Shown one piece after another: positions 2,912 to 55,077 of a stretch of 64,000 bases of DNA. The number at the start of each line of letters is the position of its first letter. Positions within the stretch are counted from its first letter, which is position 1. Source of the DNA: a virus (Duplodnaviria; Caudoviricetes). The notes below the pieces were generated by a model that had not been told where the DNA came from, ran no database searches, and was given only the letters and a program-made list of their open reading frames with translations. A program made the position numbers and the translations under genes. Where the stretch lies: positions 96,001 to 160,000 of the IMG/VR virus record IMGVR_UViG_3300037400_002732; one strand, 5' to 3'.

Positions 2912-2940
2912 AAGTTAAACTAAATCAATTTGAATTGCAA
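2912..2940 (-). promoter_or_regulatory. Sigma70-type promoter for the polymerase-like gene
   Basis: TTGCAA-17 nt-TAACTT on the minus strand. Confidence 0.5.
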
Positions 2941-3151
2941 GCAAACTTAACCTCCGGTACATCCGACCATTTTAATGTTTCGGAAATCAATAGATAGGAT
3001 TACCACATTATGTAAACTAAAATCATTGAATGTAAAGAAGAAGTTTACACACCGGAAAACAAAGTACTGACACACAGCCGCCATAGCGGCCCCCATTTAA
3101 ATGTTTCGAGTTTTTATAATATATATATAGAGTAATTTGCAATTCAAATTG
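2926..3151. repeat. Structured AT-rich intergenic region, candidate replication origin
   Basis: Perfect 15-bp inverted repeat (2926-2940 / 3137-3151); 15/16 direct repeat CCATTT(T/A)AATGTTTCG (2967-2982, 3093-3108); GCCGC-CATA-GCGGC hairpin (3077-3090); TA-rich run (3111-3129). Confidence 0.55.
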
Positions 3152-10754: not shown

Positions 10755-10773
10755 GTTATGCCTCGGTTGCATG

Positions 10774-10785
10774 AACTGATAAACT
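10774..10785 (+). promoter_or_regulatory. Late promoter motif AACTGATAAACT
   Basis: Perfect copy 23 nt before ATG 10809, in the loop of a 14-bp stem (10760-10802). Confidence 0.75.
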
Positions 10786-10808
10786 AGGCGTGTAACCGAG
10801 GCTTTCTC

Positions 10809-17112: not shown

Positions 17113-17158
17113 ATTCGAAAATTCGAGCCATACTGGCTTCATGATAAGGACTTACAAT

Positions 17159-18997
17159 ATGCAGACGCAGACAGAAACTATCCAACAGAAGGCTATGAAG
17201 GACATCTTCGCTTTGGACGAAGGTGTTAGCCTGTGTGAATCTTTCGGTAGCCAGCTTGACTTGGGCTTGCCGGATGCCGAAGATGATACTCCAAAGGACT
17301 TCAATGACATGCTCGAAGTCAATCCGAGTAATGAACCCATGGAATACGGTGAAAATTTCATGAGTGAAGGCGATGACATGGCCGACAAGCAGACACAGCA
17401 GTTTGTTGTGGACGAGTTTGCTAAGCAAGCTGCAGAACTTCCGGACGGAAGCATTAGTGCAGCTGACATTACTGGCATTTCCTCAATTATTCAGATGAAC
17501 AACCATATTACTGGTGACATCCGTTCCTTCATTGACCAGACTATCAAGCATGCAGTTCAGGCTCAACAGCAGCAGAACGTTTCTGATGCTCAGCCGAATG
17601 GTACTGTTGCTCAAGACATTGCCAAGACTGGCGATGAAACTGCCGACGCTGGCCTTGGTGCTGACGCTGGCTTGGGCGCAGAAGGTGGAATTCCGGCTAT
17701 GGAACCGATCGATCCGACGGCTGCTCCGGCTCTTGATGCCAAACCGGACGCTGGCCTTGGCGGCGACCTCGGTGGCGATGTAGGCGATCCGCTCGCCGAC
17801 ATGAACGGCATTGGCGATGACCTTAACGGCGTTGGCGATGACCTCGGCGGTGACCTCGGTGGAACTGACGACGGCCTTGGTGGCGACCTCGGTGGTGCCG
17901 ACACTGCTGGTGATGACCTCGGTGCTGGTCTTGACAGCATTAACGCTGATCTCGACGCTGAAGCTGGTGCTGATGCTGGTACTGATGCTGGTACTGACGC
18001 CGGTGCTGACGCTGGTACTGAACCAGCCGCAGACTCTGGCAGCACTGGTGGCGACGAACTTGACAACTTCCTCGACGCCGATGACGGTGCTGACGATGGT
18101 GCCAAGGATGCTGACACTGGTGACGACAAGGGTGCCGAAAAGGGTGACGACAAGGGTGCCGAAGGAACTGACGACAAGAAGTCTGAAGACGATGACGATT
18201 CCGACTTCAACTTCGAAGCCATTGCAACTAAGGCTCGTGGCCTTGTTGAAGGCAATGAAGCTCCGGTTACTAACACTGAAGTTCCGGCTGACGACGCTTC
18301 TACAGATGCTGGCGTACAAGCTGGCGGCGATACTGCTACTACTGACCTCGGCGATGCTGCTACCGATACACCGGCTGACCCGGCTGCTACGGATACTCCA
18401 GCAGATGAATGCGCTGACAAAGCAAGCAAGTTCGAAGCTCAGATTGAATCCATCGTATCTCAGACAAAGATGAAGATGGCTGCACAGAGGGCTCGCGCCG
18501 TTCTCGAATCCTTCCATAAGGAACGTGAACGCACCAATACTCTTGCCAAACTCGAAAGTATTGTTTCGAATCTGAAGAAGACTGCGAAGACTGAATCTAT
18601 CGTGTCTAACTTCGCCAAGGAATCCAAGAAGCAAGCTGCTCTCGAAGCCATGGCAGACAAGGTGTTGGCTAAGCCAGTACCCCAGCCGACTTTTGAATCC
18701 GTGATGAGCGCGATTGACTCCACTCTCGCCAAGAAGCCGACGATGAGCGTGTCTGCCGAAGCAGACAAGATCATCGCTCAGTTCGAAGCTCAGCATGGTG
18801 TAAAGAAGGCTCCGGTAGAAGACCCGCGTCTTAAGAAAATCAACAGTGTGCTTGAATGCGCTGCAGCTAAGGCAAAATCCGAAGAAAAGCTTTCTGAAGA
18901 CTTGACTAGTCTTCTTGAAAGTGCGCAGAATGCAAAGGCTACCTCTGACCTTGACAAGCAACTCATGGCACTTGTAGCTCAAGTAAAGAACGCTTAA
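17159..18997 (+). CDS. Acidic low-complexity putative prohead core/internal head protein
   Basis: AAGGA SD; G/D/A repeats (GGDLG, DAGTDAG, GDDKGAE); many (L/F)E(S/A) motifs; strongly biased codons. Confidence 0.6.
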   Translation: MQTQTETIQQKAMKDIFALDEGVSLCESFGSQLDLGLPDAEDDTPKDFNDMLEVNPSNEPMEYGENFMSEGDDMADKQTQQFVVDEFAKQAAELPDGSISAADITGISSIIQMNNHITGDIRSFIDQTIKHAVQAQQQQNVSDAQPNGTVAQDIAKTGDETADAGLGADAGLGAEGGIPAMEPIDPTAAPALDAKPDAGLGGDLGGDVGDPLADMNGIGDDLNGVGDDLGGDLGGTDDGLGGDLGGADTAGDDLGAGLDSINADLDAEAGADAGTDAGTDAGADAGTEPAADSGSTGGDELDNFLDADDGADDGAKDADTGDDKGAEKGDDKGAEGTDDKKSEDDDDSDFNFEAIATKARGLVEGNEAPVTNTEVPADDASTDAGVQAGGDTATTDLGDAATDTPADPAATDTPADECADKASKFEAQIESIVSQTKMKMAAQRARAVLESFHKERERTNTLAKLESIVSNLKKTAKTESIVSNFAKESKKQAALEAMADKVLAKPVPQPTFESVMSAIDSTLAKKPTMSVSAEADKIIAQFEAQHGVKKAPVEDPRLKKINSVLECAAAKAKSEEKLSEDLTSLLESAQNAKATSDLDKQLMALVAQVKNA

Positions 18998-19017
18998 ACT
19001 TCATATTGTTCTCCTGG

Positions 19018-19049
19018 GAGGCCGTCGCGAAAGCGGCGGCTTCTTTTTT
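19018..19049 (+). terminator. Rho-independent terminator
   Basis: GCCGTCGC-GAAA-GCGGCGGC followed by TTCTTTTTT. Confidence 0.85.
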
Positions 19050-19076
19050 GTCCTTTTAGGATAATTTAGGTATTGG

Positions 19077-19088
19077 AACTGATAAACT
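19077..19088 (+). promoter_or_regulatory. Late promoter motif AACTGATAAACT
   Basis: Perfect copy 9 nt before ATG 19098. Confidence 0.75.
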
Positions 19089-19097
19089 GCATGCATC

Positions 19098-21266
19098 ATG
19101 AATAATGGCCACTTTGCAGGACGAATAAAGAAGTTTGTTGAGGATGCAGTCAGCAAAGCTAAAGGAACCGAGGGCGAATTATACAAGATAATGAACGCTC
19201 ACGGCTTTTATGATGTTGCTGATGAAAACAACGGACTTACCGACTGGCAACGCGCAAGCGTACCCAGCTACAACCAGAATAGGATTTCTGAGTTGTGTAA
19301 TGCCATTGCCGAAATGTTCGGTCACATGCTTGCCAATGACGAATACGGAATTCTTTATCCAAATGTTGACGATGTTGTCGGAAAGCTAGACTTGAATGCG
19401 ACGAAGACGGCATCCGAAATGAACGTGATTGGCGGAGCATTAGGAGCCCTAACGTTTGGTGCGTCCGAAACTGCACGACAGTCGATGGGTCAGCTTACCG
19501 CTATCCTCATGGGCGGTTTCGCGTTTGACCCAGACATTCTTCCGCCGATCGCACTGAATTTGCCGGGACTTCCACTTACTCTAGCTAATGCGTATAAGCC
19601 GGGTTCGTACCCAGCCGACTGGACGTTTCTCTACGATCACGAAACGGTAAAGTCGAAGAATTATTATGAGGCGGATGATGGCGGAATCGCTATCGGAGCG
19701 AATATCAAGCTCAATTTAGGCCCATCAAGGCAGCAGATTCTGAAGCTGGTGTTCTCCGTTCCGGATGTTGACGAGAACGGTATGCCAAAGGGTGACGCGG
19801 TTGGTGGACTTTCGCCAGACCAGTTCAACAAGATGTTTACGCTGTCCGACAAGAAGTATAGCGAACTAACCGACGCTGACAAGGAATTTGAACTCGATTC
19901 AGACCAGATGCAGCTTGCGTTCTTCCGTTATATTCAACTGACACTGTGGGGAGCCATTAAGAATCCGGACAACTGGGCCTACTTGCACTGGGGTTCGATT
20001 ACGCACAACTCGTGCCCATGCGCCGTGAAGACGGCAATTTGTAGCTTCATTCATACCAACGGTTTTGCCGTAGATCCGAAAATTTGTCCGGAAGCTGGGT
20101 TCATTTCATACTGCATTTCTACTGGCATGTCATACTACACTGGCCGAACAAAGCCGACGCACATGTATGTGTTCGAAGGCATGTCCTATCTTGATGACAA
20201 GGGAAATAAGGTTGTCGCCGACAAGACAATCGGCTGGTCTAGCAATAACCAAGGTGTTCCGGTCGATAAAAAGCTGGCCAATTTACACTTTACGTTGGCG
20301 GCAGACTTGCTGTCTCATTTGACCTATGACACGAATCCGAACAAGGTTGCTCTCCGTAAGCAGCGTGTCGATGAAGCGAACTTGATTTACTCGTTCGTTG
20401 GGCTTCCTACTATGAAGTTCGGCGACGCAGTCATTCCGCCGGAATTGTCGGCGAACGCGATGGAAAAACGTGGCTTCCTCGAATTGATGAAGGCTACGAT
20501 CAAGGTTTACGACAACAAGAACTCTACGCTTCCGCTATCCGATGAAAACTTCAAGATTGTCAATCAAGCCGAAAAGGGAGCCAACCAGCTCTCGGAATTG
20601 ACGGTAAGGACAATCAAGTATATTCTGTCCAAGGCTGGACTCCAAGGAATCGTGGTTACTTCCGTGTACCGTTCTCCGGAGGCGCAAGCCAAGGCTATGT
20701 TTAATAACAGACAAAGTCACAACGGCGCGATTGCCGTTAACTATGCCGAAAAAGGCCGTTCTGTTGATGCTGAATATACGAAAGTGTCCGAAAGGGTAAA
20801 TGGTGCTGGTAACGGATGCAGAGTTCCTATTAAGGATCCGGCTGCCCAAGCGCAAGCGATCAAGAACATGCAAGCTAAGTGCCAAGAATATTTGGAAAAG
20901 GGTACTCCGGTATCTAATCACGGTTATGACCAGAGCAAGGTGCAAGCTGTCGATATGGGCCCCAAGAGCTCAAAGGCGTTTTTCAAGTACACCGATGACC
21001 AGATGAGAAAGTTCAATACGGCTTGCTGGGATGCATACCAAGAAGGCTACTTGAAAATCTATTTGGGCCCAGTTGAATATGGCGGCCCGAAGGTCAAGGA
21101 TCCGGCGTTCCATATAGAAGTGTGGCAAGACGACAACCATAAGCACCCAAGCGGATTCGGCTCTACGCCAGCCCCGCCTAGCATTGACTGCATGGTGCTT
21201 GACGAAAATTTGAAGAACAAGAATACATGGGATCTGGTTTACGTTCATGACCAGACGATCTCGTAG
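19098..21266 (+). CDS. Putative virion-associated peptidoglycan hydrolase: lysozyme/pesticin-like domain plus M15-like Zn peptidase
   Basis: FLYDHE..GGIAIG..QRVDEANLI; C-terminal VTSVYRSPEAQ..SNH..AVDM..FHIE. Confidence 0.6.
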   Translation: MNNGHFAGRIKKFVEDAVSKAKGTEGELYKIMNAHGFYDVADENNGLTDWQRASVPSYNQNRISELCNAIAEMFGHMLANDEYGILYPNVDDVVGKLDLNATKTASEMNVIGGALGALTFGASETARQSMGQLTAILMGGFAFDPDILPPIALNLPGLPLTLANAYKPGSYPADWTFLYDHETVKSKNYYEADDGGIAIGANIKLNLGPSRQQILKLVFSVPDVDENGMPKGDAVGGLSPDQFNKMFTLSDKKYSELTDADKEFELDSDQMQLAFFRYIQLTLWGAIKNPDNWAYLHWGSITHNSCPCAVKTAICSFIHTNGFAVDPKICPEAGFISYCISTGMSYYTGRTKPTHMYVFEGMSYLDDKGNKVVADKTIGWSSNNQGVPVDKKLANLHFTLAADLLSHLTYDTNPNKVALRKQRVDEANLIYSFVGLPTMKFGDAVIPPELSANAMEKRGFLELMKATIKVYDNKNSTLPLSDENFKIVNQAEKGANQLSELTVRTIKYILSKAGLQGIVVTSVYRSPEAQAKAMFNNRQSHNGAIAVNYAEKGRSVDAEYTKVSERVNGAGNGCRVPIKDPAAQAQAIKNMQAKCQEYLEKGTPVSNHGYDQSKVQAVDMGPKSSKAFFKYTDDQMRKFNTACWDAYQEGYLKIYLGPVEYGGPKVKDPAFHIEVWQDDNHKHPSGFGSTPAPPSIDCMVLDENLKNKNTWDLVYVHDQTIS

Positions 21267-25730: not shown

Positions 25731-25757
25731 ATTGCTTAACCGAGCGGTAGTTAATTG

Positions 25758-25934
25758 ATGAAAACCAAGGACACTAAACAGTTATTGACTGGAATTTTGA
25801 ACAACGACACGGCAACCGTCAAACGGATTGTCAATGCGTATTTCGAGTCTTGTTTTACTGCTGAGATAGATAAGGCGTCCAAGGCCGTCATGGAGTCTAT
25901 CGGCAAAGAGGGGAAGGCTTTGTATGGCAACTAA
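25758..25934 (+). CDS. Small prohead core protein, gp67-like (not in the ORF track)
   Basis: 58 aa MKTKDTKQLLTGILNNDTATVKRIVNAYFESCFTAEIDKASKAVMESIGKEGKALYGN; overlaps the protease start. Confidence 0.6.
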   Translation: MKTKDTKQLLTGILNNDTATVKRIVNAYFESCFTAEIDKASKAVMESIGKEGKALYGN

Positions 25935-27605: not shown

Positions 27606-27625
27606 TCTCTCCTTAGTTGGCTCCG

Positions 27626-27657
27626 AAGGGGCTCGGTCGAAAGGCCGGGCCTCTTTT
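27626..27657 (+). terminator. Rho-independent terminator
   Basis: GGGGCTCGGTC-GAAA-GGCCGGGCCTC followed by TTTT. Confidence 0.8.
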
Positions 27658-27690
27658 GATATAATTTCTTAGGTTGGACTGAAACTGCCT

Positions 27691-27702
27691 AACTGATAAA
27701 CT
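27691..27702 (+). promoter_or_regulatory. Late promoter motif AACTGATAAACT
   Basis: Perfect copy; 21 nt (AACTGATAAACTAGGCGTGTA) identical to the copy at 10774. Confidence 0.8.
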
Positions 27703-27722
27703 AGGCGTGTAGAAGAGGAAAT

Positions 27723-28422: not shown

Positions 28423-31221
28423 ATGGACGCACCGTCAATCAGTTTGCTGAATTACACATTCCCTTTTGAAAAGGACGACTTTAGTACAGCCGTCCAGTTC
28501 AAGAATGCCGACAAGGTTGACGTAAGTGCGTACGTTCGATCCGTTGAACTTGAATCAATAAATGGAGCCGCCAACGGATGTTGGCTAACGCTCGAAGGCG
28601 ATGACAATGTACTGCTTAATTTTCCTAGCATTACTCCAGTTGAAAAAGAAACGTACCGCAAAATTCCGCTAAAGTTCGTTGTCGGCTATACCGACTACGA
28701 TGACGAAGATTACGACGATGCCGACGTAATGTACACGACCAACGTTATCAATGTGTATGCGACCGAGTTCGGCGATGCCGACCCAGTTATATACTACATC
28801 GAGAACCTTGCCAGCAAGGCTGGCGAAAGCGAAAGCGTAGTAATTCATGGCGGCAACCTCACTGACGGATTGAGTATAAAGTTATTCGACGGCGAAAATG
28901 AATATGTAATTCCTCCGGAGGACATCGTATTCGATATTGAGAAAGGAACCGCTACGTTCACTATCGCGCCAGGTATGCTCGACATGAACGATGACGGCAC
29001 TGAACCGTGTGGCCAGTATGAAATTTATTTCAGCTACGGCGACCAGAATTACGGCAACTCCGGTCTGGCTCTGATACGGTATAAGTACGATGCCGAAACC
29101 GAAGAAATGCAAAGATATTCAGTCGAGGCCGTAACTCGCGAGAAGGCTTGCTACGACACTGGCGAATTCTCTCTGGTGTTTGACAACGTCGATGAAAATG
29201 GCAATGCCGTTCTGAACGCCAAGGCGGATCCTCGATATGGCGAGTCCGTTGTTGTACGACGTCAGACGGCTTCGTATTACGAACAGAATCACTACGTCTA
29301 TCACGAGAACATCGACTCGCTATATGGCTTCATGAAGTTGAAGAACACGCTGGATGAATACGGAAATCCGACTATCCAGATTATGCAGTATGGCGAACTA
29401 TACAACGTCGATGACGACTATGCCGAGGTAAATCTTTGGCAAGGCTATCCCATCTACCTTGATGGCCAGACAAATTCAGAAGAGAATGGTCTCTGGTTCG
29501 TTACTGGCGGCGTATGGGTAAGGGATCCTTGCGAAGCTTTCGTATATACGATGGTTCGCGTAAAGCATAACAAGAATCTTACGCACAAGGCTGGCTTGCT
29601 GAAGCTGGACGGTGTGCAGTTGTATGATGGTGACGTGGTATGGCTATCCCACCAGCTCCGTGAAGAGGAGAACGGTTTGTGGGTTGTTCGAATTGGCGAA
29701 TGGGAAGGGTTCAATCCGTATGAGTACAATCCGATTTCTCCGGAACCGCTTGACTGTCCGGCCAACTGTCACAAGGAAGAAGTTGCCTTCCCAGTCACCG
29801 ACTTTGTATTGGTAGACTTGGGCGCGAAGGCTACTTACCAAGTAGACTATGTATGCCGTGACGATGTTCCATACAAGTGTGGGACTAGAACTATTTGCAA
29901 TTACAAGGTGTCGCCGGGCCATGTAGTCGCTCTGCTGAATCAGAAGGACGGTGGCGACGGAATTTATCTGGTGAAGTGTGGCGAATGGGAAAAGATTGGC
30001 GATGTTAGCGAAAGCGATGTCAGCGGAACCACCATTGACTTTAGCCATCAAGTCATCGTTCAGAACGATATTGACTTCTGTCAGTGTGGCGGAGTATTCC
30101 ATATTGATTATTTCTTCCTTACTCCGTCGTGCTATTTGAACCATCTTCAGCGCAGCGTGAAGATTATGTGCGGCGATGCGTCCATTGCTCCGAACCCAGC
30201 TGAATCTCAGTTCAGTATTACCGAATATGTTATCCGTGTCGGCGAGGAAGATGCGTTGATTGGTTACCAAGGCCGTACTCCAGGCGATCCGGTCAAGGAA
30301 GACTGTGTGGAAGCTAATGATGATTTTGAATACGATTTCGGTTTGACCCTTGTCGAACGCAGACAGTATGTCAAGAATCCGAGCTGCTTGCGCTCGCCTA
30401 TTTGCGAACCGATATGCGACGTGCCTCGCATATTCAACTTGCGTACTACCAAGGACTATACGAACAGTAACGACCGTAATGGGTTTACGATAAAGTTCTG
30501 GCGTCATGAAGAAGACGGCTGGCACCTTTATGCCTACATCGGTTCTGGTATGCAAAATACTGGCATGGACTACTATGTGTATCACCTTCATGTGAAAGGC
30601 AAGGCGACCGAGAACCAAGTCGATGTGAACGAGCACGACTGGTTTACTGTGACGACTGGCTACATTGCCGATGGCGACGGATTAGTGTACGATGATGAAA
30701 ACCATATAATTGGATCAGATTCGTTCGGACTCTATGATGACAAGTGGGAATTCGAGGTGGTTGATAGCAACGGTGATTCGCATATTGAACATACGTTAAA
30801 CCGCGACACATTGTATATGCCGTGGCGTATTTCGTGTACTACGAATCTGTTGGCTCATGGCTCCCTTTATGATCATGAACCGAGGACAACTTGCCAAGAC
30901 ATGGAAATGGGTTCAAAGACCATCGAAGCGATTGGCGACGTATGCGATTACTGCAACGGTACTGGGATAGATGACAATGGTGACAAATGCGCGGTGTGCG
31001 ATGGTACTGGTCGTTCGCCGTCTGGATATCTGGTTGGCATGTTGCATGTATTCGACGTAGCCTACTACACAACGGCCATGACAAAATCGCAGTTTGTCGC
31101 AGAGTACAACAAGTACGCCAGCAGCAAGACGGATTGCATCTGGTATGAATTTAACGAAGTCATCGCAACCGATGATGAAGATCCGATTGTAACGGATGAT
31201 AATGAACTTATAAGGAGATAG
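28423..31221 (+). CDS. Cys-rich fibre/virion protein
   Basis: Three Q..(N/D)G(L/I)(W/Y).V..G.W modules typical of fibre N-termini; two CxxCxGxG motifs near the C-terminus. Confidence 0.6.
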   Translation: MDAPSISLLNYTFPFEKDDFSTAVQFKNADKVDVSAYVRSVELESINGAANGCWLTLEGDDNVLLNFPSITPVEKETYRKIPLKFVVGYTDYDDEDYDDADVMYTTNVINVYATEFGDADPVIYYIENLASKAGESESVVIHGGNLTDGLSIKLFDGENEYVIPPEDIVFDIEKGTATFTIAPGMLDMNDDGTEPCGQYEIYFSYGDQNYGNSGLALIRYKYDAETEEMQRYSVEAVTREKACYDTGEFSLVFDNVDENGNAVLNAKADPRYGESVVVRRQTASYYEQNHYVYHENIDSLYGFMKLKNTLDEYGNPTIQIMQYGELYNVDDDYAEVNLWQGYPIYLDGQTNSEENGLWFVTGGVWVRDPCEAFVYTMVRVKHNKNLTHKAGLLKLDGVQLYDGDVVWLSHQLREEENGLWVVRIGEWEGFNPYEYNPISPEPLDCPANCHKEEVAFPVTDFVLVDLGAKATYQVDYVCRDDVPYKCGTRTICNYKVSPGHVVALLNQKDGGDGIYLVKCGEWEKIGDVSESDVSGTTIDFSHQVIVQNDIDFCQCGGVFHIDYFFLTPSCYLNHLQRSVKIMCGDASIAPNPAESQFSITEYVIRVGEEDALIGYQGRTPGDPVKEDCVEANDDFEYDFGLTLVERRQYVKNPSCLRSPICEPICDVPRIFNLRTTKDYTNSNDRNGFTIKFWRHEEDGWHLYAYIGSGMQNTGMDYYVYHLHVKGKATENQVDVNEHDWFTVTTGYIADGDGLVYDDENHIIGSDSFGLYDDKWEFEVVDSNGDSHIEHTLNRDTLYMPWRISCTTNLLAHGSLYDHEPRTTCQDMEMGSKTIEAIGDVCDYCNGTGIDDNGDKCAVCDGTGRSPSGYLVGMLHVFDVAYYTTAMTKSQFVAEYNKYASSKTDCIWYEFNEVIATDDEDPIVTDDNELIRR

Positions 31222-31225
31222 CTGT

Positions 31226-32272
31226 ATGTCCAACTTGAACGAGATAAAATATGTTACGATTTGGAAATTGGACACGCGAGAAGGTGCTACCGCGACCGAG
31301 TCTCGCGACTGGTTACCAGTAACACATATTGACAAGATTCGTGGCCGTATTACAGTCAAGGCACCGTATCCGATTGGTGATTACGATGTCGTGACCGCCG
31401 AGAGCAAGGAATGCGAAACTTGTGAGGGACTTGGCTATCTGCAGAAGGTTGCGTGTCCTACGTGCAATGATACTCATTTAATGGAATGCCCGGTATGCCA
31501 TGGAAGGAAAACCGCTGGCTGCGATACTCAAGAATTGTGCGCATATTGCGGCGGATCTGGTCGAGTTCCTTGTGAGACATGCTATAGCGGTTCCAAGGAA
31601 TTCTGGGTTCCGACTGACCATTGCACTGGCGATGATTGCGTTCCGTGTCCAGACTGTAATGGTACTGGATATGCTGGTGGCGGTGGCGTCATATCGGTTA
31701 CTCCGGAAGGCGTTATCACTCTGCGATACGATTCAGTGACTTTGGGCATTACCGACGACGGTAGACTCTTTGCTCGTTTGAAGGTAAAGTCGGATGGCGG
31801 CATTGGAATCACGGAAGATAGCGAACTGTTTGTTAAGGTAGATGAATCTACTATTCGCTTAGTGAACGGACAACTGACTGCCGTGTATCATCCAGCAACC
31901 ATGAAGGCGTCTGGCGAAGCAGATACAGTTGAACAGCAGTCCCAACGTATTGATACTGCTCTGGTTGTTACAGATGAGTCGGTAAAACGTGTTCATGCAT
32001 TTTTGTCACTTGATCTGCATTCACTTAATTATGACGAAGCTGCTTCCATGTACAATATTACCGTGTCGTTGGTCGCTGGTCGTGATGGCGCAGTTAATGT
32101 ACAGTTCAGCCCGATAACATGGGATTTGACGGTGCCGTACACTATGTTGAATTTCGATACGATTATCGACAACATTCCGTATGGGTATGAGTTTTATGTT
32201 CAGCTTGACTGCGACGAGAACATGCCCGTCGGAAACAAGATCAACTGGTCGATGAACGTTGTTTCTTGCTAA
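31226..32272 (+). CDS. Fibre-like protein with DnaJ-type CxxCxGxG zinc-finger repeats
   Basis: CETCEGLG, CPTC, CPVCHG, CAYCGGSG, CETC, CPDCNGTG, then fibre-like repeats (VKVDESTIRLVNGQL). Confidence 0.65.
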   Translation: MSNLNEIKYVTIWKLDTREGATATESRDWLPVTHIDKIRGRITVKAPYPIGDYDVVTAESKECETCEGLGYLQKVACPTCNDTHLMECPVCHGRKTAGCDTQELCAYCGGSGRVPCETCYSGSKEFWVPTDHCTGDDCVPCPDCNGTGYAGGGGVISVTPEGVITLRYDSVTLGITDDGRLFARLKVKSDGGIGITEDSELFVKVDESTIRLVNGQLTAVYHPATMKASGEADTVEQQSQRIDTALVVTDESVKRVHAFLSLDLHSLNYDEAASMYNITVSLVAGRDGAVNVQFSPITWDLTVPYTMLNFDTIIDNIPYGYEFYVQLDCDENMPVGNKINWSMNVVSC

Positions 32273-32312: not shown

Positions 32313-33095
32313 ATGGCGAATAAGAATATTAACGGGCCGAAGAAGCGTCCGGCCAATCCAGCGGTGTTTGACGAAAAGGGCCGTCAGACAGTCGCTTCAA
32401 TGAAGTACGACAAGATTGATAAAGATTACCTCACCAAGCTACTCTTGGAACATAAGCGTGACGTTGAACTGTACGGAAAAGGCTACCCAGTTTCGGACGA
32501 CCTAGCCACTGCCATTCAAGTGGTCATCAAGAAGACTGCTGGCATGATGTCATGGCGAAAGTACACCGATCCTTGGAAGGAAGAAATGTACGCCCGCGCA
32601 CAGTTCTGTACCCTCAAGTATTGCCATTCGTTCGACCCGAACAAGATGGCGGAAAATTCGAAGAACAAGGATCCGTACTACTACCTCGGACAGATAGTCT
32701 CTCGCGCTTTCATGCAGCAAGTGACAGACCTCAAGAAGAAGTCCAAGTACATCAAGTTTACCTCGCTCAACGAAAATATTCTCCATACTTGCGTGAACAT
32801 CGACGAATATGCTGGCGTCATCGAACGCGAAGAGCAGCGTAAGAAGGATGAAGTAAATGCTAACCTTGCCATGGAACACAGCAACATTGCTGACGCAGTT
32901 GACGTTCTTGAGAAGGTTGATCCGTACATGGATCAGAAGGTGCTAGACCTTGCCAAGAAGCTTGTCGATGAAGAAGGTATCAGCGAGGATGCTGCATACA
33001 AGGAAGCAAAACGAATTTTGGCCGCTCGCAAGCAGAAGGCCGCCAAGGAAAAGAAATCTGCGGCAGCAAAGAAGCTTGCGGAGACCAAAAAATAG
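32313..33095 (+). CDS. gp55: Late transcription sigma factor (T4 gp55 family)
   Basis: YTDPWKEEM..KYCHSFDPNK..DPYYYLGQIVSRAFMQ resembles the gp55 YT..WK.EM / NP.AY.TQ...NAF.Q pattern. Confidence 0.8.
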   Translation: MANKNINGPKKRPANPAVFDEKGRQTVASMKYDKIDKDYLTKLLLEHKRDVELYGKGYPVSDDLATAIQVVIKKTAGMMSWRKYTDPWKEEMYARAQFCTLKYCHSFDPNKMAENSKNKDPYYYLGQIVSRAFMQQVTDLKKKSKYIKFTSLNENILHTCVNIDEYAGVIEREEQRKKDEVNANLAMEHSNIADAVDVLEKVDPYMDQKVLDLAKKLVDEEGISEDAAYKEAKRILAARKQKAAKEKKSAAAKKLAETKK

Positions 33096-33128
33096 AACAA
33101 CATTCATAGTGTTCTCCTTTAGGTTCAG

Positions 33129-33158
33129 AAGGTCGCTGGGGTAACCTGGCGGCCTTTT
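33129..33158 (+). terminator. Terminator after gp55
   Basis: AAGGTCGCTGGG-GTAA-CCTGGCGGCCTT followed by TT. Confidence 0.8.
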
Positions 33159-33204
33159 GTTTATGCAACATTTGATGCTTTTAAATGAAACTAAACTTGT
33201 TTCA

Positions 33205-33216
33205 ATGTGATAAACT
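33205..33216 (+). promoter_or_regulatory. Late promoter variant ATGTGATAAACT
   Basis: 24 nt before ATG 33241. Confidence 0.7.
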
Positions 33217-33240
33217 ACGTTCAAAGTCAAGGATAAAATT

Positions 33241-33720
33241 ATGGCTCAGAAAATTGACAGCGGAAATGTATTGGGAATGTATGCGACGAATTTCGACACG
33301 CATCCAGATTGGAAGCACGACATCTATGTTCAAACACAGAGCCTTATTCCTGGCGTAATGGATATCAAGTCTGGTAAGGCCAATGACTTCGTGAAACGTG
33401 CCGAGACCCAGATGTACTGGCATACGGAAGACCGTCTAGCGGCTGAACAAGACAAATTCCTCGAAAATGACCCAGTGAACAACACGCCGGGACGTGGTCA
33501 GAAGAATTATCGCCGCATGGAATACGATATTACCAAGAATCCTAACGGCAAGGGCGCGGAAGAAGACCGTGAAGAGGCCGAGAACCGCGAGGTTCTGACC
33601 AAGGATGAACTGATGAACATCCTCAACAACGTGCGCTACACGGTATGTTCTACGGCGTCGGCATGGGGCGACAAGCCCATCCAGCAGAAGGATTATCAAG
33701 ACCAGATCAAGCTTAGGTAG
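33241..33720 (+). CDS. Hypothetical late protein
   Basis: Own late promoter, AAGGA SD and terminator. Confidence 0.75.
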   Translation: MAQKIDSGNVLGMYATNFDTHPDWKHDIYVQTQSLIPGVMDIKSGKANDFVKRAETQMYWHTEDRLAAEQDKFLENDPVNNTPGRGQKNYRRMEYDITKNPNGKGAEEDREEAENREVLTKDELMNILNNVRYTVCSTASAWGDKPIQQKDYQDQIKLR

Positions 33721-33746
33721 TGGTTTTCTTCCTTTTACACTACCTT

Positions 33747-33780
33747 GGAGGTCGCCGTGAGGCGGCCTCCTCTCTTTTTT
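33747..33780 (+). terminator. Rho-independent terminator
   Basis: GGAGGTCGCC-GTGA-GGCGGCCTCC followed by TCTCTTTTTT. Confidence 0.85.
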
Positions 33781-33795
33781 GGCATGGATTTTGCT
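33780..33795 (+). promoter_or_regulatory. Sigma54 (-24/-12) promoter
   Basis: TGGCATGGATTTTGCT = GG-N10-GC, 45 nt before the hsp20 ATG. Confidence 0.65.
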
Positions 33796-34370: not shown

Positions 34371-35099
34371 CTAATTGAGGTTGTCTGCTGGAGTAGCGAT
34401 GTATGCTACAACATCGTAGTTGTTTGTTCTATTGGATTTTCTTGCAAATGCAACGTGATCTGAGTCTTCGTCAATCCATTCTAGTCTTTCTTTAAACTCA
34501 GGGGAAGACAGAGAAGCGGACTTAATTTTATGTATTTTGCTGGCAATCCATTCTCGACTCTCTTCTAGTGTATGTCCGCTGTCTGAGTGGACGTATGCTG
34601 AATTTTCGGTGAGACCGTGAGTACCATCTGCTCCGCAGAAGTCACGTAGACGCTGGATAGTTGCCATCACAGACTGTTGGTCGCCGTCATTGGTTATAAT
34701 GTGAATTGTTGTCAATGCATAGTTTTCGTCTGTTGTATCAATCGGATTTCGGCCAAAGCTGAGACTTTCTAGTGTAACTTTGTTTGGGTTTTCCGAAAGC
34801 CAGTTGCGGTAGTAGTTGATGCTCCTACGGACGGATTGGAAGTTTTCCGTTCCGGCGGCCTTCATCGCTTCCATGGTGAGCGATTCTAGGAATACCTTCG
34901 GCTCGGTGTCGCCGCGCAGCTTTTCGAGTGCTTCGATCGACTCGAACTTTGCTTTGTCTGCATCGGACAGCGTTGGGTCGATATCATGGATAAGACCGAA
35001 CGCCTTTACGACGGCTTCCAGCTTTGCTGAGTTGTTCTCGTTTATGAGCTGACGAGTTTTGAAGATGAAATACTTTTCTGGTTCGGTAGCTTGACGCAT
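34371..35099 (-). CDS. Hypothetical late protein, possible internal head protein
   Basis: GGAG SD before MRQATE; minus-strand late promoter; repeated LEA/FES/LES motifs. Confidence 0.65.
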   Translation of the reverse strand: MRQATEPEKYFIFKTRQLINENNSAKLEAVVKAFGLIHDIDPTLSDADKAKFESIEALEKLRGDTEPKVFLESLTMEAMKAAGTENFQSVRRSINYYRNWLSENPNKVTLESLSFGRNPIDTTDENYALTTIHIITNDGDQQSVMATIQRLRDFCGADGTHGLTENSAYVHSDSGHTLEESREWIASKIHKIKSASLSSPEFKERLEWIDEDSDHVAFARKSNRTNNYDVVAYIATPADNLN

Positions 35100-35124
35100 G
35101 GTATGGTCTCCGTATTCTGAATGC

Positions 35125-35136
35125 AGTTTATCGGTT
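35125..35136 (-). promoter_or_regulatory. Late promoter variant AACCGATAAACT
   Basis: 25 nt before minus-strand ATG 35099. Confidence 0.7.
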
Positions 35137-35149
35137 TTAAAAATGGCTG

Positions 35150-35161
35150 CACAGATAAACT
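35150..35161 (+). promoter_or_regulatory. Late promoter variant CACAGATAAACT
   Basis: 20 nt before the gp15 ATG. Confidence 0.7.
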
Positions 35162-35181
35162 GACCATGTAGAGGATAACGC

Positions 35182-36780
35182 ATGACACCGTATTACTACG
35201 TTAGGGAAATTGAAAAGATTATGATCGCGATAATGGACGTGTTCAATAATCTAAGAGTCAAGAAATACAAGGATCTGAACCGCAAGGATGCAGACCGTAC
35301 CGTAGCAGTGCCTATCGTTACGCATAATAGCAGCAATTTTACGAATCTCTGGGCATCTACGCAGACCCAGCAAGAACCTATGCCAGTACCCATTATTGGA
35401 TTTCGGTTCACTGGGAACTCGCATGACGATGCCAACATGGTTCAGCCTTGCTACGCTCGCGAAATTCTTTCGCCGTCAATGCAGAAATTCATCCGCGACA
35501 TCCAGCCGACTCCGCAATTATTCAAGTTTGAAATGACTGCGCTGTCGAACAATATTTCTGACTATTACCAGATCAAGGAAAACATTGAAGCCTACTTCAA
35601 CAAGTACCGTACAGTCCGAATAAAGGAGTTCGACTTTGCTCCAGAAATTGAACGTCCTATTCCGTTCAGCGTTACTTGGGCCGATTCAATCGAAGACGAG
35701 AAGGCGAACGACAGTAAGGAATACCAGCTGTTCAAGACGACCTATACGATCGAAGCGCATGGCGTGTATCACCGTAGGTATGAAATTCCGGCTATCATCA
35801 AGTATGCACAAATGAATTTTAATATCAACAACGAGTTGATAGATTCGCTGCAAGTATTTGTATATCCGGACGAGATTGCCCAGCAGAAGAAGCAGCTGTG
35901 GGAAACTATCGAGCCGTCCATCAGAGAAGGCTGGTCGCTTTTGAAGACGTTCACTCGTACGCTTGTCCGTAAAGTTGATGAGGATGGCGACGAATACTGG
36001 AAGGATGAAACGCTGAAGCACTATGACTTGACGTACGTCGAACCTACTGAATACAACAAGGTAGGCAACCCCATTGCTGGTTATAACCCTACCATGAAGG
36101 GGTACAAGACCGACGCCGACGGCAATTACATCAAGGACAAGGATGGCGATCTCATTCCTATATACGACTGGGAAGAAGTCGTTGTCGGCGATGTCAACCG
36201 CCCAGTAGAGGTGCCGTCGTTTGATCTGCTGCATTTGAATTTTGACGAGGATTCCGATACGGAGCATGACTTTAGCGGAATGAATCGTGACTTTGTTGCG
36301 GTTAATTCTGCAGCTCGTGAATTTGTTCCGGACATGGCTCCAGGAAACGGTAGTTATGCACCAGACGGCTATGCGGCTGGTACTGACTGGTCGCAAATCC
36401 TTAACTGGTTCGGCGACAACAAGGATGGAAAGATTGAGTCATCGTACACATTCAAGGCGACGTTGCAGTTCAAGCGTCCGAATGTCGATACGGTGTTCCA
36501 GTATTTATACAATCCGAAGTCGGTTACGCTCAGCGACGGAACTGTCATTCCGGCAGAAGCTGTATGGTTTGACTGGGGTATTCAAGACAATAGGCTTTAT
36601 TTTACCTACCATACCACTACGCAATATAGGCGTTTCGTCAGCGCGAAGACAGTCTTCGATGACAAGACGATCTATTCGATTTACTTCGTTCTGTACAATG
36701 AAGGACAGAACGGCGCGTTCGGTATTCGTACAAACTTCTCCGATACCATGATTGCGTTGGAGACAAAGGAAGCTAAATGA
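35182..36780 (+). CDS. gp15: Tail sheath stabilizer/terminator (gp15-like) with a long C-terminal extension
   Basis: YYYVREIEKIMIAIMDVFNNLRV..VPI, PIIGFRFTG, QIKENIEAYFN. Confidence 0.75.
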   Translation: MTPYYYVREIEKIMIAIMDVFNNLRVKKYKDLNRKDADRTVAVPIVTHNSSNFTNLWASTQTQQEPMPVPIIGFRFTGNSHDDANMVQPCYAREILSPSMQKFIRDIQPTPQLFKFEMTALSNNISDYYQIKENIEAYFNKYRTVRIKEFDFAPEIERPIPFSVTWADSIEDEKANDSKEYQLFKTTYTIEAHGVYHRRYEIPAIIKYAQMNFNINNELIDSLQVFVYPDEIAQQKKQLWETIEPSIREGWSLLKTFTRTLVRKVDEDGDEYWKDETLKHYDLTYVEPTEYNKVGNPIAGYNPTMKGYKTDADGNYIKDKDGDLIPIYDWEEVVVGDVNRPVEVPSFDLLHLNFDEDSDTEHDFSGMNRDFVAVNSAAREFVPDMAPGNGSYAPDGYAAGTDWSQILNWFGDNKDGKIESSYTFKATLQFKRPNVDTVFQYLYNPKSVTLSDGTVIPAEAVWFDWGIQDNRLYFTYHTTTQYRRFVSAKTVFDDKTIYSIYFVLYNEGQNGAFGIRTNFSDTMIALETKEAK

Positions 36781-54540: not shown

Positions 54541-55077
54541 ATGCAGATTTCTCGTCGCAAGGTTATTGAGCTTGGTCTTACTTTGATGCAAGCTGAAAGC
54601 CTTTTCAAGCTTCCGATTTCCGGTAGGTTCTATTACGCTTGTGTGAAGAACCGCGAATTGGGCCGTGAAGAATACAAGCTCTCCATGGAGGCTAATCCGT
54701 ATCCTCAGCAGTTCAACGAATATGAAACCAAGCGTGTCGCCATTCTCAACGAAGTCGGAGAATCGGTTAAGCCGGGATTTTCCAAGATGGATGATCGCGA
54801 ACGTGACGCAATCGTCAATTCTCGTGATGAAAAGGTCATGCCGACTGAAAAGCGTGAAATGCTTCTAAAGCGTTTGAATGACCTCTCCACAGAATATAAA
54901 GACCTTCTCCAAGAGGTTGATGCGGTGAATGTTCGCCGTAAGGAATTCTTGGACGAAGTTGATGATTATCCGATCAAGACGGTCAAGTTGTCTGATATTC
55001 CGGAAGTCGTGAAAGGAAACGGTTTCGATATCTTCCTTTCTCTCGATCCGATGATTATCGACGACGCCGAGGCATAA
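54541..55077 (+). CDS. Small helical protein, possible fibre chaperone
   Basis: AAGGA SD; lies between fibre genes; TAATAAAC upstream. Confidence 0.6.
   Translation: MQISRRKVIELGLTLMQAESLFKLPISGRFYYACVKNRELGREEYKLSMEANPYPQQFNEYETKRVAILNEVGESVKPGFSKMDDRERDAIVNSRDEKVMPTEKREMLLKRLNDLSTEYKDLLQEVDAVNVRRKEFLDEVDDYPIKTVKLSDIPEVVKGNGFDIFLSLDPMIIDDAEA

Follow-up and report, generated by a model that had tools for sequence, protein, structure and literature searches.

Anti-RBS elements ahead of late terminators in an uncultured T4-like phage: a possible cis-acting brake on translation

Why does the 3' untranslated region (UTR) of a phage late sigma factor gene carry, just before its terminator, a sequence that reads as a ribosome-binding site (RBS) in reverse complement? 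The question is raised by the gp55 locus of an uncultured, T4-like phage. The window analyzed here, 64,000 nucleotides long, comprises bases 96001-160000 of one 174,807-bp genome (47.5% G+C) and encodes a gp20 portal, a Gp23-family capsid protein, a gp21-type prohead protease, and the gp55-like late sigma factor. Positions are those of the window unless given as genome positions. When a phage collection was searched at the DNA level, no match to this genome was obtained. Nor is there a near relative among cultured phages: the gp55 protein gave only distant tblastn matches (25-31% identity), namely, to its counterparts in Acinetobacter phage Ac42 and Caulobacter phage Cr30. Relatives for comparison were drawn from IMG/VR and metagenome assemblies. 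The coordinates of the main features are collected in Table 1.

Table 1. Features of the gp55 locus and of the sites compared with it
Feature	Position	Strand	Remarks
gp55-like late sigma factor gene	32313..33095	+	phrog_234, E = 9e-16; 3' UTR bears copy 2
Copy 2, anti-RBS motif TTCATAGTGTTCTCCTTT	33103..33120	+	gp55 3' UTR, between stop and intrinsic terminator
Intrinsic terminator of gp55 transcription unit	33126..33162	+	core hairpin 33131-33154, then UUUUGUUU; own hairpin search
Late-promoter motif TGATAAACT of downstream 159-aa gene	33208..33216	+	motif scan
54-aa antisense frame	32943..33107	-	rejected as gene; codon-aligned shadow of the Lys/Ala/Glu-rich tail of gp55
Start region of 348-aa zinc-finger-repeat late gene	31203..31228	+	candidate cis partner of copy 2
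3'-UTR stretch predicted to pair with the 348-aa start region	33106..33127	+	partner 31203-31225, 20 bp
Copy 1, anti-RBS spacer behind 618-aa head-region gene	18998..19017	+	motif 19000-19017
Terminator behind copy 1	19018..19049	+	GAAA loop, U6
618-aa gene start region	17147..17161	+	SD AGGA 17147-17150, AUG 17159-17161; candidate cis partner of copy 1
Third anti-SD spacer UCUCUCCUU, without anti-AUG	27606..27627	+	behind 308-aa scaffold-position gene; terminator 27628-27653

The motif, its class, and its surroundings

The gp55 element (copy 2) contains an anti-AUG, CAU (33105-33107), and an anti-Shine-Dalgarno (anti-SD) sequence, UCUCCUU (33113-33119), and its reverse complement is a canonical SD-spacer-ATG-AA. 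This likeness to an RBS had been recognized in the original prediction, which also placed the element between the gp55 stop and its terminator; both statements were confirmed, with the stop codon TAG at 33093-33095 on one side and the hairpin on the other. The terminator has an extended stem (33126-33159), and the 86-nt piece folds at -29 kcal/mol (z = -4.4). A generic sigma-70/terminator scan of 32900-33400 returned nothing, and it was a separate hairpin search that detected the terminator. An Rfam scan of 32800-33500 gave no family at the gathering threshold and only two sub-threshold chance hits. A resemblance of AUUGUU to a RegA operator was rejected, the hexamer not being conserved among variants. 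A local antiterminator, with CUCC pairing to the purine-rich base of the terminator stem, was also discarded on inspection of the sequences: either the loop would lack the necessary length or the helix would have no more than 4-6 bp, and the two copies did not behave consistently.

With up to three mismatches, the motif occurred twice in the window, against 0.04 occurrences expected, and the same two sites were the only ones in the whole genome to carry it in the sense of the local transcript, in line with the claim that copy 2 is one of two copies. Its twin, copy 1, shares 15 of 16 core positions and the same layout of stop, motif, and terminator. It follows a 618-aa head-region gene whose product is acidic and unrelated to gp55. 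Inside this gene, a 499-aa antisense "shadow" ORF runs on the minus strand (17483-18982), out of frame with the copy-1 ATG; it is a codon-bias effect and no gene.

For an unbiased count, genes and terminators were called genome-wide, and pentamers were counted in the 37 spacers (709 nt) between stop codon and hairpin. CTCCT was found in 5 spacers against 0.18 expected (~28-fold; Poisson p = 1.5e-6) and was the top pentamer after A-tract words. The five are copies 1 and 2, the third spacer of Table 1, whose 308-aa gene follows the prohead protease gene, and two spacers outside the window (genome 20517 and 61110). The density of CTCCT was ~7 per kb in spacers versus 0.32 per kb in coding sense strands, where it was two-fold depleted. 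The assignment of the element to a recurrent, selected class is supported.

According to whole-genome gene calls, the late genes are SD-poor with short leaders, and the early genes have strong AAGGAG SDs. Many late genes had been described as having short leaders without GGAG; late genes are indeed SD-poor but not SD-free, with AGGA, GAGG, and AAGG common and AAGGAGA before the 348-aa gene. The early-region promoters read TTTG-N20-TAnnTTTG inside a conserved TTGCAATTCAAAT box (window 2940-3137; genome 4177-4301, 58502-58618, 69643-69773, and 73816-73924), which by sequence is a Bacteroidota-type sigma-A consensus. The strong SDs of the early genes occur despite these promoters, and AGGAG is 4.6-fold depleted in coding strands. 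A further promoter-like class, (G/C/A)TAATTT(A), recurs genome-wide 3' of terminators and 12-26 nt upstream of the late motif (window examples 19061, 27661, 32278, and 54503). It stands alone before gp55 and before the gene at 54541, with ATGAAGTAATTTA common to both, and may be a middle-class promoter, yielding tandem middle and late promoters. Two of the called gene starts are also in doubt. A strong terminator at 33721-33785 (GGAGGTCGCC GTGA GGCGGCCTCC plus T-run), preceded by a spacer that is likewise pyrimidine-rich (UUUUCUUCCUUUU), sits inside the longest ORF called for hsp20 (33745), so the hsp20 start must be further downstream. In addition, a late-promoter motif (GATAAACTGCAT, ~35133, minus strand) falls within the longest ORF called for a minus-strand gene, 34371-35183 (window 35099-35140), whose true start is probably an internal Met near 35099.

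Variation among relatives

At the 618-aa locus, nine relatives were compared out of ~100 homologous loci. A 15-nt block was invariant in six of the nine near-clade relatives: CATATTGTTCTCCTG is identical in the window, L009, L011, L051, L058, and L065, and L057 and L059 have a version shortened by one base. The relatives that share it have proteins only 52-77% identical and terminator stems altered with compensatory substitutions; the block is better conserved than both the adjoining stem and the protein. A more distant clade (33-35% protein identity) has another element at this site, (CAU)AGUAUCCUC.

The gp55 site is more variable. Three unrelated solutions combining an anti-SD with CAU were found, namely, the one in the window, the one in L001/L002, and the one in L031. 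Six further 3'-UTR types have no anti-SD at all, yet the strong SD of the 348-aa gene is conserved. The copy-2 (type-A) sequence was sought in 8 viral and 18 metagenome loci and found in none, and a search with the 722-aa downstream gene for more relatives of the copy-2 type yielded a fragment only. At the 308-aa site, most relatives have CUCC or CCUCC, often with CAU at SD-like spacing; no such element was found at the terminators behind the capsid gene and hsp20 in those loci. Across sites and genomes, the elements differ except for the CUCC core. Conservation in related genomes, which had been proposed as a check, is thus seen at the level of the class, with the 15-nt block kept at the 618-aa site and sequences that differ between sites.

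Several arrangements in these regions recur. The intergenic modules (window 18998-19100 and 27606-27722, and relatives) keep the order anti-SD spacer, terminator, TAATTT motif, and late promoter. Spacer variants that are almost the same occupy different sites in different genomes, for example, in L010 the 618-aa site and in L015 the 308-aa site, a movement that looks like an exchange of regulatory cassettes. A nearly identical start cassette, AAGGAGAACTA(T)ATGGGAAT, precedes an AAA+ ATPase gene of this phage (genome 13650-13670, minus strand) and a FISUMP-like gene of a 348-kb relative (L029:1498-1520), which hints that start-region cassettes are exchanged between phages as well. In L043 and L044, a hairpin lies ~60-150 nt past the gp55 stop, and the start region there is 0.92 paired in the read-through RNA and 0.32 paired in the late transcript.

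Predicted pairing and the alternatives

The best partner of copy 2 lies two genes upstream, at the start of the 348-aa gene, where the SD AAGGAGA (31212-31218) is followed by the stop codon of the upstream 932-aa gene (31219-31221) and the AUG (31226-31228). The statement in the original prediction that the window holds no perfect target was wrong, as 20 bp can form between the two stretches. The predicted helix consists of 5 + 7 + 8 bp with one bulge, one 2x2 loop, and 3 G-U pairs (-26.1 kcal/mol); it covers the SD and encloses the stop codon of the 932-aa gene. Judging from promoter and terminator motifs only, the 348-aa start and copy 2 (31226 and 33120) would be on one transcript. Among 331 start-region windows genome-wide, this one ranked best for copy 2 (best-of-all shuffle p = about 0.01), and p was 0.002 when only the flanks of the anti-SD core were shuffled. 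The helix had a base-pair probability of 0.98-1.0 in a 2-kb fold, and cofolding of the UTR alone gave a net gain of -10.4 kcal/mol with the 348-aa start versus -1.7 with the 159-aa start and -0.7 with the gp55 start. The start region of gp55 itself (-8 kcal/mol) was rejected as a partner. In a 4-kb fold, the helix was absent from the MFE structure, replaced by a local hairpin with the last codons of gp55. The partner assignment is supported by this genome alone: the gp55-site elements of L001/L002 are not specifically complementary to the start regions of their own 348-aa genes (p about 0.7).

Pairing against all phage start regions, proposed earlier as a check, thus singled out a partner for copy 2 but not for copy 1, whose best partner in that scan was no better than shuffled (p = 0.64). 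Against its own gene start, copy 1 forms 8 + 4 bp (CAUAUUGU/ACAAUAUG plus UCCU/AGGA), with a shuffle p of 0.016 in full and 0.002 when anchored, and a base-pair probability of 0.92-0.96 in the full-length fold. The longest-ORF start of this gene (17141) is probably wrong; both the SD AAGGA and the comparison with relatives suggest the AUG at 17159. In the leader of the late transcript, this AUG is preceded by a 5' hairpin (GAGCC...GGCUU). In the distant 618-aa clade, AGUAUCCU pairs with AGGAUACU in a different start region, again that of the gene itself (shuffle p below 0.0003). The pairing of 5' and 3' ends was retained in the full-length MFE structure of 7 of 8 homologous 618-aa mRNAs (base-pair probabilities 0.92-1.0), which is weak evidence because shuffled spacers also paired with the 5' start region in ~40% of full-length folds.

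Other elements gave mixed results. The L010/L060-type, L057, and L061 elements at the 618-aa site had no significant complementarity to their own starts, and a C-to-G change in the L057 start region is uncompensated. In the full-length fold, the third element pairs with 25745-25761, the first start region of its mRNA; this complementarity is weakly significant (p = 0.015), and the shuffled-spacer control shows spurious end pairing to be common. For the CTCCT spacers at genome 20517 and 61110, own-start pairing was not significant, and most 308-aa-site elements had no significant cis partner. In three independent comparisons, complementarity to start regions of the same transcript exceeded chance. 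Two different partners do not account for the 15/16 identity between copies 1 and 2. As specific trans targets, the start regions at genome 5437-5454 (small secreted protein), genome 13670 (AAA+ ATPase), and L029 of G001 (FISUMP-like) were rejected; they belong to unrelated genes.

Taken in the sense of the transcript, the element may be a cis-acting anti-RBS in the 3' UTR of late mRNAs that folds back on a start region of its own mRNA, a reading that we favor tentatively and with slightly less than even confidence. In vivo, we infer, the pyrimidine-rich stretch just before the terminator hairpin of the completed transcript would pair over ~1.9 kb with a start region that bears an SD. On the late polycistronic transcript, the copy 2 helix would mask the 348-aa start. 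With the stop codon of the 932-aa gene inside this helix, de novo initiation would be blocked and translation coupled to the upstream gene, so that most translation of the 348-aa gene would come from ribosomes moving on from the 932-aa gene. Copy 1 would mask the start region of the 618-aa gene itself. Each mRNA would then be expected to undergo fewer rounds of initiation and to decay faster, an arrangement that would limit expression from within the transcript.

Read on the opposite strand, the motif would instead be an RBS from which a short antisense ORF, 54 aa long in this genome, or a translated leader would begin. An SD, a 4-7 nt spacer, an ATG, and a second codon starting with AA do occur together in most instances while the spacer sequence varies, and the strong avoidance of AGGAG elsewhere in this genome also speaks for a minus-strand RBS. 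However, the antisense frames are 9, 13, 13, 17, 28, 33, 44, 53, 54, and 190 aa long, fall into all three frame classes relative to the sense gene, and share no conserved peptide; the ATG is missing in the third element, L012-14, L053/55/62, and L056. Minus-strand late-type promoter motifs are present in the window only at 35133 and 42308, the nearest being 16 kb from copy 1, and spacer-specific complementarity to a gene's own start in two clades is not expected of an independent start site. Hence, of the alternative put forward earlier, a 54-aa antisense ORF from 33107, the length was correct, but its standing as a gene was lost with varying frames and starts and no minus-strand promoter motif nearby; we regard it as highly improbable. 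An anti-RBS in plus-strand RNA is a better reading of the element than the start of an antisense gene; this reading is supported, and the G-U pairs in the predicted helices would fit it. A plus-strand element could also act forward, on read-through RNA: by pairing with the start of the next late gene (33226-33243), it would leave only transcripts from the intervening late promoter translatable. In the MFE structure of the read-through RNA, 33105-33119 pairs with the SD and AUG of the 159-aa gene (probability 0.58), as also happens in L031, L002, and several 308-aa-site relatives. This phage uses RBS occlusion elsewhere (hairpin 10760-10802, with a promoter in its loop), and in the 61%-identical relatives L043 and L044, the RBS of the 159-aa gene is occluded by a local hairpin whose loop contains the late promoter. 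Moreover, anti-RBS elements at the gp55 site are confined to relatives with a co-directional 159-aa gene downstream. Yet the duplex with the 159-aa start (-10.2 kcal/mol) is not above chance (p = 0.14; relatives, p = 0.15-0.87), the cofold gain is only the -1.7 kcal/mol given above, and pairing is just as good with spacers of relatives whose downstream gene is convergent. The gene downstream of copy 1 is near-leaderless, without an SD, and unpaired (probability 0.07 or less), and two of the five CTCCT spacers face convergent genes. Such forward occlusion is very unlikely.

The mechanism originally proposed was an RNA acting in trans, in which terminator-protected 3' fragments of abundant late mRNAs would silence early phage or host mRNAs through their SDs and spare the SD-poor late mRNAs. 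The contrast between strong AAGGAG SDs on early genes and weak or absent SDs with short leaders on late genes would suit such a division, and a pyrimidine stretch directly before a hairpin and U-tract is the layout of 3'-UTR-derived sRNAs. Several 3' ends show the anti-SD enrichment, some early start regions come close to full complementarity (such as genome 5437-5454, with 16/18 positions matching copy 2, and genome 13670), and the identity of copies 1 and 2 would suit a shared target. Against this, no seed beyond CUCC is conserved across sites or genomes, the early matches reflect a generic likeness to strong RBSs on unrelated genes, and copy 1 did no better than shuffled sequence in the scan of phage start regions. 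The significant partners are late start regions in cis, and an anti-SD of 5-8 nt would presumably have to compete with far more abundant ribosomes. The proposal of a trans-acting shut-off of early or host mRNAs was therefore not upheld, given the absence of a common seed, the result for copy 1, and the partners in cis; we consider it unlikely. A version in which the late 3' fragments would form a global trans switch on SD-led early and host mRNAs, with the cis complementarities as feedback targets, appears quite unlikely. Finally, the sequence may have no base-pairing role: it could serve to bind a protein, reflect a preference of this terminator class for purine-rich extensions of the 5' stem with pyrimidine flanks, or be a relic that recombination has spread among intergenic terminator-promoter cassettes. 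Four of the five CTCCT spacers do precede terminators whose 5' arm opens with a G/A-rich extension, related variants appear at different sites and genomes as if cassettes moved (L010 and L015), the element is missing in many relatives, and several elements have no significant partner. This explanation is doubtful, since the 15-nt block is more conserved than terminator stem and protein, the enrichment is specific to the anti-SD pentamer, and the three comparisons above gave complementarity to same-transcript starts beyond chance.

Relation to known systems and meaning

The cis-acting anti-RBS that we tentatively favor has a precedent in the icaR mRNA of Staphylococcus aureus, in which the 3' UTR base-pairs with the SD of that mRNA (Ruiz de los Mozos et al. 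2013, PMC3868564). The phage element resembles it in that the 3' UTR bears a short, pyrimidine-rich anti-SD predicted to pair with an SD of its own mRNA, with a block of initiation as the predicted outcome. In contrast to the long icaR 3' UTR, the phage motif lies 10-30 nt from the stop and abuts the terminator; it often adds an anti-AUG, and the candidate partner of copy 2 is not a 5' UTR but an internal start of a polycistronic late mRNA. In Bacillus subtilis, synthetic anti-SD-like 8-mers inserted far downstream, also within a 3' UTR, base-pair with the RBS, prevent initiation, and hasten decay; natural genes are depleted of such sequences (Gill et al. 2025 preprint, PMC12697547). The phage element is proposed to work by this physical mechanism. 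There, however, synthetic inserts act over hundreds of nucleotides, whereas here the distance is ~1.9 kb and the sequences are native ones, with an enrichment and conservation at one particular position that implies selection for self-limitation. The 5'/3'-UTR interaction of B. subtilis hbs, which protects against RNase Y (Braun et al. 2017, PMC5737220), likewise couples translation with stability through pairing of mRNA ends, but it involves no anti-SD mask.

In phage T4, RBS-occluding hairpins with a late promoter in the loop are known for e, soc, and I-TevI (reviewed in PMC3014915). In that design, of which the hairpin at 10760-10802 is a textbook example in this phage, an upstream anti-RBS masks the late RBS on longer transcripts. 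Work by McPheeters et al. in 1986 is said to have dealt with such T4 hairpins. Unlike them, copy 2 stands upstream of a terminator, it is no more complementary to the downstream RBS than expected by chance, and its favored partner is upstream. Small RNAs derived from 3' UTRs, such as CpxQ, SroC, and DapZ, hold a single-stranded seed directly before their own terminator hairpin and U-tail. The phage elements share this position but have no conserved seed and, among the phage start regions scanned, no significant trans target; the host group, given the Bacteroidota-like promoters, may lack Hfq. Thus, the mechanism itself has precedent. The novelty lies in elements that are native to phage late mRNAs, enriched and conserved there at a fixed place, and often joined by an anti-AUG.

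In bacterial mRNAs, anti-SD-like sequences are normally selected against, as they fold back on the RBS and lower expression (PMC12697547). This phage lineage departs from that rule at a single spot, between stop and terminator of the head-region and gp55 transcripts, where the anti-SD is both enriched and conserved. The elements are short, and natural variants are available in many metagenomic relatives. If the cis-acting reading is true, they would be the first phage example of an icaR-type 5'/3' interaction and would provide phages with a natural, genetically compact means of limiting how much each late mRNA yields or of imposing translational coupling within late operons.
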